Assembly (NCBI GenBank): GCA_003599335.1
Contig: QZJN01000003.1
Coordinates: 4,654 to 68,653, forward strand
Direction of reading: 5' to 3'
Length of the DNA: 64,000 nt
Source of the DNA: Candidatus Parcubacteria bacterium
GTDB taxonomy: Bacteria > Patescibacteriota > Minisyncoccia > SURF-38
The notes under the pieces: generated by a model
What the model saw: only the letters and a program-made list of their open reading frames with translations
Told to the model about the DNA's origin: nothing
Database searches by the model: none
Translations under genes and position numbers: made by a program
Shown here: positions 16,310 to 59,292 of the stretch, piece by piece
How the letters are laid out: each line of letters begins with the position of its first letter
How positions within the stretch are numbered: position 1 is the stretch's first letter

Positions 16310-16489
16310 CCTACAACTCTCACCAACTTCCGTTGGCTCGGTCGCAGGCCCGCCTCGCGGTTTGGCTCGCCTGTCGCTCGCCAAACATCGCTCCGGCATT
16401 CAACTCGGCTCGCGAGTAAAGCAGTTTACTCGCTTCTCATCTCCACATAAATCAAAAATTACCCAGCATTTATTGGGTAATTTTTGCTT
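16310..16489 (-). mobile_element. 180-bp GC-rich remnant segment between the tmRNA 3' end and its displaced 19-nt copy; carries the hairpin GCGAGTAAA..TTTACTCGC and the core GAGTTGAATGCCGGA shared with the tRNA-Leu-associated element
   Basis: Hairpin at 16412-16433 (plus-strand coordinates). The 15-nt core at 16392-16406 is the reverse complement of 51199-51213. A tmRNA terminator hairpin lies at 16462-16490. Confidence 0.5.
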
Positions 16490-16786
16490 GTGGAGATGGG
16501 CGGAGTTGAACCGCCGTCCGGAAGAAGCTTGATGACAAAGTTTCTACGAATGTACCCCCGTACGTGGGAGAGACGCTAAAAAGTTCAGTGCCTGCTTGCG
16601 CAGGCGCGCTCAATATATAACACCGGTTTTCTGCCCATTGAGCATCAGCAGGCCGATGGGCTTACTTAAGCGTAAGCCAGTGCCAAGTTTTTGTTGGCAG
16701 TTATAAGTTTTGCACCAGATTTACAAGTTAGTGCAGCTTGATTCGCGCTTTGTCAGAACATTCATCCGTCGAAGCCCGACATCCCC
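16488..16786 (-). ncRNA. ssrA: tmRNA (SsrA), one-piece
   Basis: Minus-strand 5' GGGGAUGUCGGGCUUCGACGG, like the canonical tmRNA 5' end. The 3' end is ..GGACGGCGGUUCAACUCCGCCCAUCUCCA(CA), with a G3:U acceptor pair. The internal tag reading frame is GCC AAC AAA AAC UUG GCA CUG GCU UAC GCU UAA, giving ANKNLALAYA. smpB is immediately upstream. Confidence 0.85.
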
Positions 16787-26299: not shown

Positions 26300-26395
26300 A
26301 TATTAATTTTCAATTTACAATTTCCAATCAATTTTCAATGACACAATTTATTAAACCATTTGAAAACTGAAAATTAGAAATTGAAAATTTTTTAA
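26300..26395. repeat. Empty copy of an imperfect inverted-repeat element built from TTGAAAAT/ATTTTCAA units (about 35-nt arms, 22-nt spacer)
   Basis: Left arm ATTTTCAATTTACAATTTCCAATCAATTTTCAATG and right arm CATTTGAAAACTGAAAATTAGAAATTGAAAAT are near reverse complements. Same family as the arms flanking 47745..48113. Confidence 0.5.
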
Positions 26396-34038: not shown

Positions 34039-34795
34039 ACTTATTGATTCTCATACTCATATTCAATTTCCTCAATATGATAACGACAGAGAGGAAATTA
34101 TTAACCGCGCCTTAAAACAAGGCATAGGGCTTATAAACATCGGGACTGATTTGGAAACAAGTCAAAAAGCAATCGAGCTTGCACAAAAATACGAATCTTT
34201 GTGGGCGACCGTTGGGCTTCACCCAAACGATTCTCCTCAAGAACCGTGGCTTGAAAAAGAGTATGGAGAACTTGTTAAGAACCCAAAAGTCGCGGCGGTA
34301 GGGGAAACGGGATTGGATTTTTTCAGAACAAAAGATAAAAAAGATCAGCTTGTGCAGTATGAAAAATTTGAAGCCCAGGTTTTTTTGGCCAATAAATTTA
34401 AAAAACCACTCACTTTTCATATTCGCGACGCTTATGAAGAAGCAGCTGATTTTTTAGGCAAACATAAAGCCGAAAATGGCGGAGCGATTCATTGTTTTAC
34501 AGGCTCATGGGAGCAGGCCAAACACTTTTTGGATATGGGTTTTTTTATTTCTTTTTCTGGCATAGTAACATTTTCGAAGGAGCTTGCCGGAGTTGCAATT
34601 AAGATTCCGCTTGAGCAGCTGCTTGTTGAAACAGACGCTCCGTATTTAGCTCCCGAGCCTCATCGGGGTAAAAGAAATGAACCGGCCTGGGTTGAGCTTG
34701 TCGCTAAAAAGGTTGCCGAAATTAAAGGTTTGTCGTTAAATGAGGTGTGTCAGAAAACGCTTCAAAATACGTTTAAACTTTTTAAGCTGGAATGA
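34025..34795 (+). CDS. tatD: TatD family metal-dependent deoxyribonuclease
   Basis: LIDSHTHIQF N-terminal motif, GETGLDF and VETDAPYL blocks. Confidence 0.8.
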   Translation: MLKLKLIDSHTHIQFPQYDNDREEIINRALKQGIGLINIGTDLETSQKAIELAQKYESLWATVGLHPNDSPQEPWLEKEYGELVKNPKVAAVGETGLDFFRTKDKKDQLVQYEKFEAQVFLANKFKKPLTFHIRDAYEEAADFLGKHKAENGGAIHCFTGSWEQAKHFLDMGFFISFSGIVTFSKELAGVAIKIPLEQLLVETDAPYLAPEPHRGKRNEPAWVELVAKKVAEIKGLSLNEVCQKTLQNTFKLFKLE

Positions 34796-46454: not shown

Positions 46455-47702
46455 ATGAATTACGAAAATCTCAAAAAAGTTGATAAAGAATCCTATAAAA
46501 TTTTTGTTGCTGAACAGGCTCGCCAGCAAGATTACATTAATCTTATTCCTTCCGAAAATTATACTTCTGAAGCCGTTTTAGAGGCTTTAGCTTCGGTATT
46601 TGTAAATAAATATTCAGAAGGTTATCCAAAAGCGAGATATTACCCAGGCAATGAAAATGTTGATCAAATTGAGCTTTTGGGGCAAGAGCGGGCGAGGAAG
46701 CTTTTTAAATTGGGTAAAGAATGGTTTGTAAATGTTCAGCCGTATTCTGGCTCACCGGCAAATCTGGCGGTTTACATTGGGCTTTTAGGAAAGGACGATA
46801 CCGCTCTTGGGATGGAGCTTGCAGCGGGTGGACATTTGACTCACGGGCATAAGGTTTCGGCTTCTGGAAAATTATTTAATTTTATACAATATGGCGTTTC
46901 GTGGGATGGCGTGATTGATTATAAAAAACTTGAGGAGCTTGCAAAAGAAAAAAAACCCAAACTTATTGTTGCCGGCACAACCGCATACCCAAGAACTCTT
47001 GATTTTAAGAGATTCAAACAAATTGCAAATTCCGTGAAAGCTTTATTGATGGTTGATATGGCTCACATTGCCGGGCTTGTGGCCGCCGGAGTCCATCCTT
47101 CGCCGTTTCCTTATGCCGATATTGTTACAACAACAACCCATAAAACGTTGAGGGGTCCAAGAGGCGCAATTATTTTTGCAAAAAACAAAGAGTTGGCCGA
47201 AAAGATAGACAGGGCTGTTTTCCCCGGTATTCAGGGTGGGCCTCACGATAATCAGACTCTTGCTATTGCCGCTGCCCTTAAAGAAGCCGCTTCAGAGAAG
47301 TTTCAAAAGTATGCTTCTAATATAGTCAGAAATGCGAAAATTTTGAGTATTGAGCTTTCTAAGCACGGTTTTGAGCTTGTGAGCGGGGGAACGGATAATC
47401 ACTTGATGCTTATTGATTTAAAAAATAAAGGAATTTCCGGTAGGCAAGCCGAAGAATGGCTCTATCAGGCCGGAATTATTGTAAATAGAAATGCGGTGCC
47501 TTTTGATCCGAGAAAACCAATAGACCCATCGGGTATTCGGTTGGGGACTCCGGCGGTAACGACAAGGGGAATGGGCAAGTCGGAAATGAAAAAAATTGCA
47601 ACTTGGATAAAAGAAGTTATTTTTAATCCGAAATCAGTAAATAAGGTTAGAAAAGAAACGTTATCTTTAACTAAAAAGTTTCCACTTTCATACAGGTTTT
47701 AA
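46455..47702 (+). CDS. glyA: Serine hydroxymethyltransferase
   Basis: Canonical SHMT blocks: YSEGYP, GGHLTHGH, TTTHKTLRGPRG (PLP lysine). Confidence 0.9.
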   Translation: MNYENLKKVDKESYKIFVAEQARQQDYINLIPSENYTSEAVLEALASVFVNKYSEGYPKARYYPGNENVDQIELLGQERARKLFKLGKEWFVNVQPYSGSPANLAVYIGLLGKDDTALGMELAAGGHLTHGHKVSASGKLFNFIQYGVSWDGVIDYKKLEELAKEKKPKLIVAGTTAYPRTLDFKRFKQIANSVKALLMVDMAHIAGLVAAGVHPSPFPYADIVTTTTHKTLRGPRGAIIFAKNKELAEKIDRAVFPGIQGGPHDNQTLAIAAALKEAASEKFQKYASNIVRNAKILSIELSKHGFELVSGGTDNHLMLIDLKNKGISGRQAEEWLYQAGIIVNRNAVPFDPRKPIDPSGIRLGTPAVTTRGMGKSEMKKIATWIKEVIFNPKSVNKVRKETLSLTKKFPLSYRF

Positions 47703-47704
47703 AG

Positions 47705-47748
47705 AATTTTCAATTTCCAATTTCAAATTTTCAATCAATTTTCAATGG
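47705..47748. repeat. Left inverted-repeat arm (AATTTTCAATTTCCAATTTCAAATTTTCAATCAATTTTCAATGG) of the IVS-like cassette
   Basis: Reverse-complementary in composition and units to 48095-48131. Confidence 0.5.
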
Positions 47749-48113
47749 ATCAAATCCAGAAAACAAAATACGATTTGGAGGATCGAACGGCTAAATTTGG
47801 GGAAGAGGTTATTAAGTTTTGTAAAGCTATCCATCAAAATACAATTACAAAACCACTAATTTCTCAGCTTGTTAGGTCTGCTACTAGCATCGGAGCAAAT
47901 TATATGGAAGCAAATGGAGCAAGTTCTCGAAAAGATTTTAGAAACAAGATTTTTATTTGTAAGAAAGAATCTTAAGAAACTAAGCACTGGCTAAGGATGC
48001 TTTTAGAGGCTATGCCGAATAAAAAAGATGAGATACAAGGTTTATGGCGAGAGGTGCAAGAGCTAACTTTAATTTTTCAAAAGATTATCACGTCATTGAA
48101 AATTGAAAATTAA
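47745..48113 (+). pseudogene. Four-helix-bundle protein gene (TIGR02436, 23S rRNA intervening-sequence protein family) interrupted by an in-frame TAA at 47973-47975
   Basis: ORF 47745..47975 (..SIGANYMEANGASSRKDFRNKIFICKKES*) continues in the same frame after the TAA as ETKHWLRMLLEAMPNKKDEIQGLWREVQELTLIFQKIITSLKIEN*. Together these reconstitute the canonical ~122-aa family, including KExxETxxWL. Confidence 0.6.
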
Positions 48114-48131
48114 TAATTGAAAATTTTGAAT
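48095..48131. repeat. Right inverted-repeat arm (CATTGAAAATTGAAAATTAATAATTGAAAATTTTGAATTT) of the IVS-like cassette
   Basis: Pairs with 47705-47748. Confidence 0.5.
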
Positions 48132-48133
48132 TT

Positions 48134-48952
48134 ATGATTATTTCCGGCCGCGAAATGGCCCACAAAGTTTTAAAGAAATTAACCTTAACTTGGCCGCGAG
48201 TTAAAAAGCAGCCCTCTTTAGGTATTATTTTGGTTGGGGAAAATCCAGCATCTTTATCTTTTATTCGAGAAAAAGAAAGGGCTGCCGAAACCGTGGGTAT
48301 TGATTATCGTATTTATGAATTTCCATATTCTGTTTCTACAAATAATCTAAAAAAGAAATTTAAAAGTCTCCTTAAAAAACATACCGCTTGGATTATTCAG
48401 TTGCCTTTGCCAAGGCACATACTTTCTCAAGAGATTTTAGATTTAATCCCATCAGAAAAGGATGCGGATGTGCTTTCGGCTCATTCTTGGTTGCATTTTT
48501 TAGCAGGTTCCAAGATTTTACCGCCGGCAGTTGGAGCCGTTGAGGAAATTTTTAGGCAGTATAAAGTAAAGCCCAAAGGCAAAACTGCAATTGTTGTTGG
48601 GTTTGGCCCTTTGGTTGGCCAGCCAGTTGCTTTTTGGTTGGCGCAACAGAAAGCAAGGGTTAATGTTATTAACGAGGGCCAAAAAAAACCAGAAAATTTT
48701 TTAAAGAAAGCGGATATAATTGTAAGCGGAGTTGGTAAGGCTCATCTCATAAGAGGGGATCATATAAAAAAAGGAGCTGTGGTAATTGATTTTGGTTTTG
48801 CCAAGAAAGACGGCAGGTTTGTCGGGGATGTTGATTTTGTTTCGGTTGCCAAAAGGGCTCGCATTGTGACGCCGGTTCCCGGAGGAGCAGGTCCTTTAAC
48901 CGTGGCGATGCTTATGAAGAATATTTTTGTATTAACAATGAATCAAAAGTAA
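48134..48952 (+). CDS. folD: Bifunctional methylenetetrahydrofolate dehydrogenase/cyclohydrolase
   Basis: FolD N-terminal catalytic and C-terminal NAD(P)-binding blocks (GVGKAHL.., VTPVPGGAGPLTVAML). Confidence 0.9.
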   Translation: MIISGREMAHKVLKKLTLTWPRVKKQPSLGIILVGENPASLSFIREKERAAETVGIDYRIYEFPYSVSTNNLKKKFKSLLKKHTAWIIQLPLPRHILSQEILDLIPSEKDADVLSAHSWLHFLAGSKILPPAVGAVEEIFRQYKVKPKGKTAIVVGFGPLVGQPVAFWLAQQKARVNVINEGQKKPENFLKKADIIVSGVGKAHLIRGDHIKKGAVVIDFGFAKKDGRFVGDVDFVSVAKRARIVTPVPGGAGPLTVAMLMKNIFVLTMNQK

Positions 48953-59046: not shown

Positions 59047-59137
59047 GGGTGGTCGGGTTTTGGACTTGACAATTTATATTTATCTGCTATAATATAAGTA
59101 TTGTAAATTACATATTTTTTGTGTTGTTTATAATAAT

Positions 59138-59246
59138 CTATTCGTGAGTAGCTTTCTCTGCAAGGAATCCCTCCTTTACTTTGCAAAGAGGCCTAAGTTT
59201 TGGGATTAGCTCCTTGTGGGCATTTGTTCCAAAGACTCACGAATAG
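59138..59246. repeat. 109-nt element with perfect 12-bp terminal inverted repeats (CTATTCGTGAGT / ACTCACGAATAG) and internal imperfect stems; candidate small structured RNA or MITE-like element
   Basis: Terminal IR and internal complementary blocks (CTCTGCAA..TTGCAAAGAG; GGAATCCC..GGGATTAG). Located between the pth 3' end and the mfd 5' end. Confidence 0.35.
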
Positions 59247-59292
59247 GTTAATGTAAACAATCCCGGCTAAAACCGCATAGAAATATGCGGCT

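Follow-up and report, generated by a model that had tools for sequence, protein, structure and literature searches.

A four-helix-bundle gene with an in-frame TAA, enclosed by heptamer-repeat arms between glyA and folD in a patescibacterial genome

The interval between glyA and folD

In the metagenome-assembled patescibacterial genome considered here, the entire spacer between glyA and folD is occupied by a cassette of 428 nt (47705-48132). By the window we mean the whole stretch of DNA analysed, 64 kb in length; its features are collected in Table 1. An earlier note on this DNA had described a TIGR02436-family gene of 369 nt between the two genes, bracketed by imperfect inverted repeats of about 40 nt. 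Sequence inspection and profile searches agree with both statements: the open reading frame spans 47745-48113 (369 nt) and is followed by TAA TAA at 48114-48119, and inverted repeats are present at 47705-47735 and 48095-48125 (31 nt, 84% complementary). The repeat unit, which had been given as an 8-mer, has to be corrected to a heptamer, with five units in each arm.

Table 1. Features of the glyA-folD interval and of a second copy in the window
Feature	Position	Strand	Basis
ORF-less copy of the same arm pair, hairpin with a loop of ~20 nt	26304..26392	+	sequence; Pfam of neighbours
glyA (serine hydroxymethyltransferase, SHMT)	46455..47702	+	Pfam SHMT, E 1.4e-159; ORF list
Left arm, AATTTTC AATTTCC AATTTCA AATTTTC AATC AATTTTC AATG	47705..47747	+	sequence; inverted repeats
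Mirror sigma-70-like match	47734-47706	-	consensus match only
Four-helix-bundle gene (PF05635 / TIGR02436; S23p / Avd-like fold), interrupted, 122 codons	47745..48116	+	HMMs, 2RLD match, AlphaFold2
In-frame TAA in place of a conserved Gln codon	47973..47975	+	translation; homologue alignment
Right arm, C ATTGAAA ATTGAAA ATTAATA ATTGAAA ATTTTGA ATT	48094..48132	+	sequence; inverted repeats; duplex energy
Outward sigma-70-like match, TTGAAA-17-GAAAAT	48096..48124	+	consensus match only, from heptamer phasing
folD (methylene-THF dehydrogenase/cyclohydrolase)	48134..48952	+	Pfam THF_DHG_CYH + THF_DHG_CYH_C

The cassette fits tightly between its neighbours. The stop codon of glyA is the TAA at 47700-47702 and the left arm begins 2 nt later, while the right arm overlaps the final codons of the enclosed gene (SLKIEN and two stops) and ends 1 nt 5' of the folD ATG. 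The FolD protein is 100% identical to a database protein named by its source bifunctional methylenetetrahydrofolate dehydrogenase/methenyltetrahydrofolate cyclohydrolase. In the cassette GC is 30.8%, as against 40% in the neighbours, and its gene occurs once in the window. The Pfam-scanned neighbours are an Ig-domain protein, SHMT, FolD, PAP2, a 277-aa protein without a Pfam match and ParB.

There is little doubt about the family of the enclosed gene. Its translation scores 58.3 bits with the PF05635 profile (cut-off 33.8) and 79.3 bits with TIGR02436 (cut-off 24), the profile search returned no other family, and the sequence matches that of PDB 2RLD with an E of 5.6e-13. An AlphaFold2 model, built on the read-through sequence with the in-frame stop ignored, has a mean pLDDT of 91.8. 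Its best Foldseek matches are 2RLD (E 2e-5, TM 0.75-0.83), 2GSC (TM ~0.8) and Avd (4DWL/8UB7), which satisfies what is expected of a four-helix-bundle fold. The protein is basic, with a pI of 9.3. The closest solved structures are thus BT_0352 (PDB 2RLD) and Xcc0516 (PDB 2GSC); BT_0352 is 29% identical, is associated with another heptamer unit and, unlike the gene described here, is intact.

The units of the left arm are of the type AATTTTC, and their complement GAAAATT in the right arm reads ATTGAAA in the register of Table 1. The last of the five left units runs into the start codon (ATG 47745-47747), no Shine-Dalgarno sequence is present 5' of this ATG, and a perfect inner pair of 13 nt (47735-47747 with 48094-48106) takes the ATG in. 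Among inverted repeats with arms at most 700 nt apart, this one is the longest in the window. The 15-mer TTGAAAATTGAAAAT occurs 13 times with up to two mismatches, where 2.6 occurrences are expected and none of 100 shuffles reaches 13. When the RNA is folded, a check proposed in the earlier note, the arms pair in the minimum-free-energy fold as well as in the centroid fold, and the energy of their duplex is -27.6 kcal/mol, compared with -11 to -13 when the partner is shuffled or reversed. Taken as a whole, the region does not fold better than its shuffles (z = -0.48), so it is only the arm pairing, and not the interior, that is non-random. The two sigma-70-like matches in the arms, the right one of which ends 9 nt 5' of the folD ATG, we reject as selected promoters: they are symmetric, and the left one points antisense into glyA.

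The same arm pair is found again at 26304-26392, where the neighbouring genes encode a class-II aminoacyl-tRNA synthetase and an M16 peptidase. The mini-ORF that it encloses reads MTQFIKPFEN before its stop; its first four residues agree with the N-termini of homologous proteins, and the arm encodes its last ones. This is a second copy of the cassette, which has lost its ORF wholly. In the cassette a direct repeat, TCAATGA, stands both at the ATG and at the inner end of the right arm, and might be what mediates such a loss.

Comparison of gene order indicates that the cassette between glyA and folD is an insertion, because in two related lineages (L087 and L099) the order is kept while glyA and folD overlap with nothing between them. 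A third relative (L098) has at this junction a heptamer hairpin of 77 nt without an ORF. Differences in occupancy of this kind were also seen at a site 3' of the T2SS ATPase gene, where L088 contrasts with L091. A target-site duplication is not evident at the junction.

The cassette does not lie within a 23S or 16S rRNA helix, since Rfam detects no rRNA in the window, and its placement outside rRNA by the earlier note is upheld. No Rfam family covers the region either (there is only a sub-threshold chance match), and a literature search by the repeat sequence gave nothing relevant on these units. Several kinds of mobile element were considered and dropped. For integron attC sites, MITE/IS elements and diversity-generating retroelements (DGRs), neither a transposase nor a reverse transcriptase was found among the Pfam-scanned neighbours, and the junction shows no evident target-site duplication; the integrase scan did not extend to the wider window, which limits the rejection of an integron to the neighbouring genes. 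Carriage by phage is unsupported, as no relatives of the cassette were found in viral contigs.

The in-frame stop and the state of this copy

The TAA is codon 77 of the frame, in the context KES-stop-ETKHWL, just as it had been described. Alignment to full-length homologues identifies the codon that it replaced: Gln stands in this column in 22 of 24 close homologues, and one of them (L001) reads TCT CAA GAA ACA AAG here. The stop is therefore one point mutation away from a sense codon, as the earlier note supposed, namely a single C-to-T change of CAA to TAA. According to the AlphaFold2 model the predicted product of 76 aa would consist of helices 1-3 only, helix 4 being removed by the stop. 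An intact frame encoding all four helices is thus lacking, which makes the gene a pseudogene member of the PF05635 family. Because an ancestral CAA for Gln became TAA and the product is left without helix 4, the alignments suggest that we are most likely dealing with a recent pseudogene.

The earlier note had left the choice between a recent pseudogene and a readthrough site. The Gln column, the usage of TAA, the loss of helix 4 and the in-frame stops of two other loci favour the former and disfavour the latter, and the full conservation of the sequence 3' of the stop is in keeping with a recent loss. It is still conceivable that the TAA is read through or tolerated, either by suppression or as two fragments with re-initiation at the ATG at 47997, and that the gene is functional. 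Indeed, all sequence 3' of the stop remains in frame and fully conserved in the alignment, a 38-codon ORF with an ATG start begins 21 nt past the stop, and a second locus has a stop in the same column. However, TAA is the main terminator in the window, where it ends 20 of the 39 ORFs of at least 200 codons and is the commonest true stop, and no suppressor was seen among the tRNAs of the window, the sole one being Leu-CAA (the rest of the genome was not covered); neither stop-codon reassignment nor programmed read-through is supported on these two counts. UAA is the least leaky of the bacterial stops, which we also count against readthrough here. The N-terminal fragment would lack helix 4, and a C-terminal fragment would miss the conserved ETKHWLR. 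As to the shared column, two of the roughly 78 homologous loci have in-frame stops, L024 a TAG in this very column and L041 a TAA at another position, and with some 10 Gln or Trp codons that can become stops by transition, two stops in one column are not improbable. In our opinion a gene kept functional in this way is very unlikely.

Alternatively, the T at 47973 could be an error that arose in sequencing or assembly, or could represent a minority variant, with the gene intact in the organism. Only one base differs, and the sequence comes from a metagenome-assembled genome of an organism for which no second, independent assembly was found; a 35-mer across the stop, in which the mutated base was replaced by N, had no match in a metagenome scan. 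On the other hand, consensus assemblies rarely contain substitution errors, and independent assemblies of other cassettes show similar in-frame stops, so that we regard this possibility, too, as quite improbable. The argument for a pseudogene has no read-level support at 47973, and this has to be counted against our explanation.

Related cassettes and known systems

Seventy homologous cassettes across Patescibacteria have the same architecture of a gene plus heptamer arms, and in most of them the left arm ends in ...AATCAATTTTCAATG. Identity at lag 7 in their flanks is 0.55 against a background of 0.26, their arms align across about 40 nt with 81% Watson-Crick complementarity, and the duplexes formed by a cassette's own arms average -28 kcal/mol against -15 for controls. 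Complementarity within an element is 68%, as compared with 55.2 +/- 1.1% for right arms exchanged among elements, and none of 1000 permutations reaches 68%; this test is register-fixed and ignores relatedness. The units are of C:G, G:C and A:T types; C:G pairing is found in 37 elements, G:C pairing in 10, and no element is discordant. The C:G and G:C types follow protein subfamilies, and the number of independent compensatory switches is therefore small. In local alignment own and foreign arms score alike (39.8 vs 36.3), because most elements have identical units, and the covariation signal rests solely on the unit types and on the register-fixed permutation test. Within these bounds, the comparison indicates that the two arms of intact cassettes change together. 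On the sense strand, arm mismatches of the G:U kind number 89 and those of the A:C type 122; G:U is not in excess, so that it remains possible that the structure acts in DNA or forms on the opposite strand.

The neighbours are mostly co-oriented with the cassette (upstream in 60 of 69 loci, downstream in 58 of 69), and the upstream gap is typically 31-47 nt, that is, the arm alone. Of 221 pairs of cassettes 202 have a saturated dS, the median dN is 0.225, and the protein is 64-78% identical across CPR phyla, while the best non-self match of FolD is at 62%. By these measures the intact cassettes elsewhere are ancient and their gene is under strong purifying selection. No rRNA signature motifs beyond single chance matches were found in 80 homologous loci. 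A 7-nt periodicity is not confined to the arms, since elsewhere between the genes of these CPR loci 26% of the stretches have a lag-7 identity of at least 0.5.

The association also extends beyond CPR. Inverted arms with a period of 7 flank the gene in all 14 non-CPR PF05635 loci sampled (Bacteroides, cyanobacteria, Chloroflexota, Spirochaetota and Bacillota); for plasmid loci, which come from Cyanobacteriota, Bacteroidota, Chloroflexota, Spirochaetota and Bacillota, the figure is 12 of 12. BT_0352 of Bacteroides thetaiotaomicron, the protein of PDB 2RLD, is encoded by such a cassette between araD and araA in the ara operon, with arms (AATTGAC)4 and (GTCAATT)4 of 31 nt that are 97% complementary; in Nostoc the arms are 35 nt and 100% complementary. 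Across lineages the period of 7 nt is kept and the sequence of the unit changes. Every one of about 84 related loci in seven bacterial phyla has the gene together with heptamer arms. The family to which the cassette belongs is very large and ancient, and heptamer arms are, as far as sequences can tell, a general hallmark of it across phyla. We found no published description of a general link between PF05635 genes and heptamer arms.

The resemblance to intervening sequences (IVS) of rRNA, to which the earlier note had drawn attention, is close for those that bear an ORF. The 23S IVS of Coxiella burnetii is 428 nt long, as is the cassette, and has a terminal stem of 28 bp, with one mismatch and one bulge, around an S23p ORF that appears unexpressed; GACAGAT heptamers stand in tandem directly 5' of its ATG, and the first repeat is where RNase III cuts (PMC4990558). 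PF05635 ORFs inside rRNA insertions are on record for CPR as well (PMC11270868, Table S4). The cassette shares with the IVS of Coxiella and Leptospira (PMC4990558) the S23p/PF05635 family, an ORF inside a stem, heptamers that abut the start codon (five here), a poor or absent ribosome-binding site, a decay-prone ORF and a GC content below that of the host. Terminal inverted repeats forming a stem around the element, with an optional S23p ORF, are therefore in place; insertion in an rRNA helix is not, since the cassette lies in an mRNA spacer between protein-coding genes. In addition, its stem is AU-rich and less perfect (84% complementary) than that of Coxiella, the ORF of CPR cassettes is generally under strong purifying selection whereas that of the Coxiella IVS appears unexpressed, and cleavage by RNase III, known for Coxiella, is only inferred here.

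Short tandemly repeated repetitive (STRR) heptamers of cyanobacteria were reportedly described by Mazel et al. in 1990. They form 7-bp repeat hairpins between co-transcribed genes, and their function is unknown (PMC2670836). The two hairpins without an ORF, at 26304-26392 and in L098, resemble STRR, tandem 7-nt units arranged as a hairpin between co-oriented genes are present here with five units per arm, and PF05635 cassettes of cyanobacteria use STRR-like units (CCCCAAT in Planktothrix, CTGGTCA in Euhalothece). However, STRR have been described in cyanobacteria only, and no link with a gene was found for them; a cyanobacterial host and STRR1-3 units are lacking here, where AATTTTC units in a CPR host (a Patescibacteria MAG) enclose a gene.

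With REP/RAYT elements (REPtrons) the cassette has in common a small gene between inverted short repeats and the occurrence of the repeat as ORF-less intergenic hairpins in the same genome. Yet its protein is a helical bundle without HUH/Y1 motifs (only PF05635 and TIGR02436 matched, so the transposase that defines a REPtron is absent), its repeats are arrays of heptamers, where those of REP are single imperfect palindromes, and no evidence of recent transposition was found. Avd (PDB 4DWL, 8UB7), an accessory protein of DGRs that is a pentamer bound to structured RNA (PMC10053308), has the same fold and belongs to the same superfamily (Foldseek TM-score ~0.7), but sequence identity is about 10%. 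No reverse transcriptase was found among the Pfam-scanned neighbours that have a match, and to that extent the adjacent reverse transcriptase of a DGR is missing; template and variable repeats were outside this test. The FopS small RNAs of Bacteroides were checked as well and are unrelated to the cassette.

What the arms may do

The sequences show that the locus is a nonsense-mutated copy of a widespread operon-resident cassette, and we infer that its arms act as an RNA stem cut by RNase III; in this explanation as a whole we have moderate confidence. The cassette would be transcribed within the host operon, which we infer because it has no promoter-like match of its own on the coding strand and no ribosome-binding site, and because its relatives are co-oriented with both neighbours in about 85% of cases. 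In the transcript the arms would pair as an AU-rich stem of about 40 bp that loops out the ORF, buries its start codon and brings the glyA stop beside the folD start. By analogy with ORF-bearing rRNA IVS, RNase III may then cut the stem, and such cleavage would free a cassette mRNA with a short leader and separate the flanking cistrons. A protein may read the repeats as well, the simplest candidate being the (pentameric) product of the cassette. This is suggested by the strict 7-nt period across phyla, which exceeds what a plain RNase III stem needs.

Certain points count against this explanation as well. There are no RNA data for the organism, and co-transcription, the stem in vivo and its cleavage by RNase III rest on inference throughout. 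Complementarity in the AU-rich stem does not exceed 81-84%. Moreover, a stem for RNase III does not by itself account for the requirement for heptamer arrays.

It is possible, although we doubt it, that the arms act in DNA and not in RNA, either as a hairpin or cruciform or as arrays of protein-binding heptamers, and serve as recognition or recombination sites for the spread or maintenance of the element, as REP do for RAYT; the ORF-less hairpins would then be non-autonomous. Such hairpins do occur with the same arms in the window and in other genomes, and the orthologous site is free of the cassette in relatives. The constant period with lineage-specific units, the lack of a G:U bias on the sense strand and the heptamer periodicity common elsewhere in CPR intergenic stretches point in the same direction, and the fully complementary arms in Nostoc suggest active homogenisation. 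However, the protein is a helical bundle of 120 aa in which no nuclease, transposase or recombinase motif can be recognised, and Avd, the one relative that has been characterised, binds RNA and RT as an accessory factor. The junction with its lack of an evident target-site duplication, the viral contigs without copies and the saturated dS between copies also speak against it, the last implying that movement, if any, is rare.

Alternatively, the heptamer hairpin could be, as proposed for STRR, an intergenic device beneficial to the host, with the ORF a mere passenger lodged in its loop. The roles suggested for STRR hairpins between co-transcribed genes are transcript stabilisation, translational coupling and an outward promoter for the downstream gene (PMC2670836). 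Here the base of the stem sets the glyA stop beside the start of folD, two genes that overlap in relatives, the right arm carries its promoter-like match just before folD, and L098 has the hairpin alone at the junction. But the same match faces back into glyA from the left arm and is therefore better seen as a by-product of the repeat, and the lineages L087 and L099 do without any hairpin. Strong purifying selection on the ORF in most copies would be unexpected for a passenger. We consider this reading rather unlikely.

Beyond the processed RNA stem that we prefer for this locus, a broader idea can be put forward only tentatively. PF05635 genes with heptamer arms may form one pan-bacterial, operon-resident class, of which IVS and STRR would be special cases or remnants, and in which a pentameric Avd-like protein recognises its own stem, as RNA or DNA, and controls processing, maintenance or spread in a manner comparable to RAYT and REP. 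That the protein recognises the heptamer repeats is a conjecture.

For about 35 years the nature of rRNA IVS, the role of their conserved S23p ORF and the purpose of the cyanobacterial STRR heptamers have been unexplained. This locus and its relatives suggest that they may be one phenomenon, in which the gene of a small Avd-like protein travels with inverted arrays of 7-nt repeats and settles where a stem-loop is harmless, that is, in operon spacers and in helices of structural RNAs. The co-variation of the arms and the strong conservation of the gene in Patescibacteria argue for a real function and not for junk. Annotators of streamlined genomes can recognise heptamer hairpins and truncated "four helix bundle" ORFs as stages in the decay of one element. 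With BT_0352 in the arabinose operon, the question is directly testable in a genetically tractable organism for which transcriptome maps exist.

The cassette between glyA and folD

The earlier note had placed a gene of the four-helix-bundle family, bracketed by inverted repeats, between glyA and folD, and this description proved accurate. Nearly the whole of the 431-nt spacer is occupied by the cassette. The start codon of its ORF lies inside the final unit of the left arm, while the right arm overlaps the final ORF codons (SLKIEN) and ends 1 nt upstream of the folD ATG. An inverted-repeat search gave arms of 31 nt, 84% complementary, and further in a perfect 13-nt pair spanning the ATG; among arms at most 700 nt apart, this is the longest inverted repeat of the 64 kb. 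Folding, which the note had proposed as a check, pairs the arms in both the minimum-free-energy and the centroid structure, with a duplex energy of -27.6 kcal/mol versus about -12 with shuffled or reversed partners. The interior of the cassette folds no better than chance (z = -0.48). The ORF lacks a Shine-Dalgarno sequence, and upstream of it the coding strand showed nothing resembling a promoter; weak outward-facing TTGAAA-17-GAAAAT matches do occur in both arms, because of the heptamer phasing.

Features of the cassette and other elements of the window
Feature	Position	Details
glyA	46455-47702	Pfam SHMT
Left arm	47705-47747	AATTTTC AATTTCC AATTTCA AATTTTC AATC AATTTTC AATG
Cassette ORF	47745-48113	369 nt, then TAA TAA
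In-frame TAA	47973-47975	
Right arm	48094-48132	C ATTGAAA ATTGAAA ATTAATA ATTGAAA ATTTTGA ATT
folD	48134-48952	
ORF-less heptamer hairpin	26304-26392	between class-II aminoacyl-tRNA synthetase and M16 peptidase genes
LeuRS ORF	34792-37233	
LeuRS heptamer run	35484-35548	AAATTTCCAATTTCT, 30 GC-rich nt, AATTTTCAATTTTCAAAA
LeuRS heptamer run	36357-36384	(AATTTCC)x4, read as ISNFQFPIS; variable loop
Inverted repeat, not heptameric	59124-59149 / 59235-59260	26 nt, 88% complementary, 85 nt apart; intergenic
tmRNA gene	16488-16786	minus strand; tag peptide ANKNLALAYA

Comparison with other genomes shows that the cassette was inserted at this junction; the copy is also broken. The closest relatives of this FolD are just 60-62% identical. 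In one comparison locus on a 384-kb contig (L087) the same gene order is found (Ig-domain protein, SHMT, FolD, PAP2, ParB), with glyA and folD overlapping by ATGA; they overlap in L099 as well. A third locus (L098, FolD 62% identical) carries at 171-247 an ORF-less heptamer hairpin of 77 nt precisely at the glyA/folD junction, in which the two repeat types are swapped compared with the cassette (G/A-rich left, T-rich right). The GC content is 30.8% in the cassette versus 40% in its neighbours.

Elsewhere in the window the heptamer arms of the cassette occur as a pair without the gene. This hairpin holds a 10-codon mini-ORF, MTQFIKPFEN*, whose start resembles that of many homologues, which is consistent with internal deletion of an earlier cassette; solo hairpins of like kind exist in L001, L057 and L080. 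Beyond a T2SS ATPase gene, one locus takes two forms in different samples, although the PF05635 protein encoded upstream is identical in both. One form has a heptamer hairpin without an ORF (AAATCCT... / ...TAGAATT; L088 4025-4169, L093 2527-2671); in the other, AGAATTn heptamers precede another PF05635 gene, which belongs to a different subfamily (L091 2587-2824; also L095 and L097). The LeuRS gene also has arm-like heptamer runs in frame at two places, all of left-arm polarity and without a partner arm. The first place coincides with 12 residues inserted in comparison with Thermus LeuRS, immediately ahead of the editing domain, and its GC-rich segment resembles those of some CPR right arms.

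The gene and its in-frame stop

Translated through the stop, the gene scores 58.3 bits with PF05635 and 79.3 bits with TIGR02436, so that the family assignment stands. The protein is basic (pI 9.3) and has a sequence match to PDB 2RLD; AlphaFold2 models it with confidence as a helical bundle (mean pLDDT 91.8), closest in structure to 2RLD, 2GSC and Avd, the accessory protein of diversity-generating retroelements (4DWL, 8UB7). The likeness of Avd to PF05635 proteins has been described (PMC10053308). Of the neighbours that match a Pfam family, none is a reverse transcriptase (one 277-aa neighbour has no match), and the window holds no second copy of the cassette gene.

The in-frame TAA is indeed present, and, as claimed, it is one point mutation from a sense codon. 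Its alignment column is Gln in 22 of 24 close homologues and the codon in L001 is CAA, therefore TAA represents a single C-to-T substitution. The earlier note left open whether this is a very recent pseudogene or a readthrough site. Here TAA terminates 20 of 39 long ORFs of the window, whose sole tRNA is Leu-CAA, and the truncated product of 76 aa would miss helix 4. The residues after the stop remain in frame and agree with invariant columns, so the mutation is recent. We regard the copy as a pseudogene of recent origin; read-through is possible, as is an assembly error (no reads were checked), each with only a very slight chance. In-frame stops are found in two more of about 78 homologous loci: TAG at the very same column in L024, and TAA nine codons upstream of it in L041. 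The earlier observation is thus confirmed and its interpretation supported, with a pseudogene favoured over read-through.

Arms and selection in the CPR family

Database relatives of the protein number more than 8000; the 120 best listed are 67-78% identical, and those with a named source are from Patescibacteria. Scanning genomes at species level confirmed 580 loci, and the 80 best of these belong to Saccharibacteria, Microgenomates, Parcubacteria, Berkelbacteria, Kazan and CPR2. Their flanks are alike almost everywhere: upstream, 3-5 AATTTNC units ending in ...AATCAATTTTCAATG at the start codon; downstream, complementary units after the stop, frequently starting with TTCAATGAAAATTG.

The arms are complementary, co-varying and of period 7, and intact copies are conserved. 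Duplexes of an element's own arms average -28 kcal/mol versus -15 for controls (67 of 70 below -15), and the arms align with each other over about 40 nt with 81% Watson-Crick complementarity. Besides A/T-type elements, left and right unit types are C:G in 37 elements, G:C in 10 and discordant in none. In fixed register, complementarity is 68% within elements versus 55.2 +/- 1.1% with right arms swapped (0/1000); shifting the register by 1-3 nt lowers the value within elements to 21-46%. This permutation test ignores relatedness of the elements, and the G:C type follows a protein subfamily, so there are few independent switches. In 202 of 221 pairwise comparisons the synonymous sites have reached saturation, and median dN is 0.225; hence the high protein identity reflects long-lasting strong purifying selection and not a transfer in recent times.

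In 60 of 69 loci the upstream neighbour points the same way as the cassette gene, and in 58 of 69 the downstream neighbour does; the gap upstream of the cassette gene, typically 31-47 nt, is the arm alone. Mean lag-7 identity, a measure of 7-nt periodicity, is 0.55 in CPR flanks against a background of 0.26. It reaches at least 0.5 in 74% of cassette flanks versus 26% of other intergenic stretches of these loci; thus heptamer tracts are enriched at cassettes and are also found alone. Some cassettes (L001 2843-3400, L101 1436-1499) have an extra arm: besides the right-type array that follows the ORF, another stands between the left-type array and the ORF. The left arm could thus pair either directly ahead of the ATG or across the entire ORF; in L001 both right-type arrays repeat each other directly over about 27 nt. 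GC-rich short hairpin-like segments, e.g. GCCTGCCCGCC...GGCGCAGGCGGG, lie within or after the AT-rich right arm in L023, L047, L054 and L068.

Cassettes outside CPR and a possible mechanism

The crystallised Bacteroides protein BT_0352 (2RLD) is encoded between araD and araA, with arms (AATTGAC)4 / (GTCAATT)4 of 31 nt, 97% complementary and 424 nt apart. Identical arms flank a second Bacteroidaceae cassette, between aminotransferase and DAHP synthase genes. A plasmid protein search gave 30 records, and all 12 loci examined, picked for taxonomic spread, have period-7 inverted flanks: Nostoc, (TAATTCG)5, 35 nt and 100% complementary; Planktothrix, CCCCAAT and CGTAAAT units; Euhalothece, (CTGGTCA)13; Treponema, more than 20 GAAAGNG units; Anabaena, Pseudanabaena, Gloeocapsa, Monoglobus and two loci of Chlorohelix; and, with a weaker signal, Bernardetia and Chondrinema. 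Their lag-7 identity is 0.38-0.89, and at least 0.43 in 21 of 24 flanks (background 0.26). The plasmid genes sit between co-oriented operon genes, often in restriction-modification, DISARM or CRISPR loci. Seven of them (L106, L109, L111, L112, L113, L115, L117) lie in defence loci, between genes for drmD and an MmeI-type enzyme, hsdS and hsdR, DUF1156 and Swt1-HEPN proteins, or a helicase and an N6-methylase, or beside cas1/cas2.

The Coxiella 23S intervening sequence (IVS) has 428 nt, a 28-bp terminal stem, an ORF of the S23p family, now decaying, and 3-4 GACAGAT heptamers immediately 5' of an ATG with a poor ribosome-binding site; RNase III cuts at the first repeat (PMC4990558). A few CPR rRNA insertions also hold PF05635 ORFs (PMC11270868). 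We infer that the cassette may be co-transcribed with its neighbours and that its arms would form a stem in which the ATG is buried, the ORF is looped out and the glyA stop comes to lie beside the folD start. By analogy with rRNA IVSs, RNase III might cut this stem. Such a model does not need strict heptamer periodicity despite diverging unit sequences; this periodicity suggests that a protein recognises the repeats, perhaps the pentamer that the cassette itself encodes. The mismatches in the arms do not distinguish RNA from DNA structure.

In cyanobacteria, tandem repeats of 7 bp known as STRRs (short tandemly repeated repetitive heptamers) give rise to hairpins between co-transcribed genes; what they do is unknown, with roles in transcript stability or translational coupling proposed (PMC2670836). 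Our literature search found no paper tying STRRs to the PF05635 family, nor heptamer arms to PF05635 genes outside rRNA. The instance described here is itself an unremarkable decayed copy. What the class appears to represent, apparently undescribed as far as we found, is a general link between IVS-type ORFs and heptamer-repeat hairpins.
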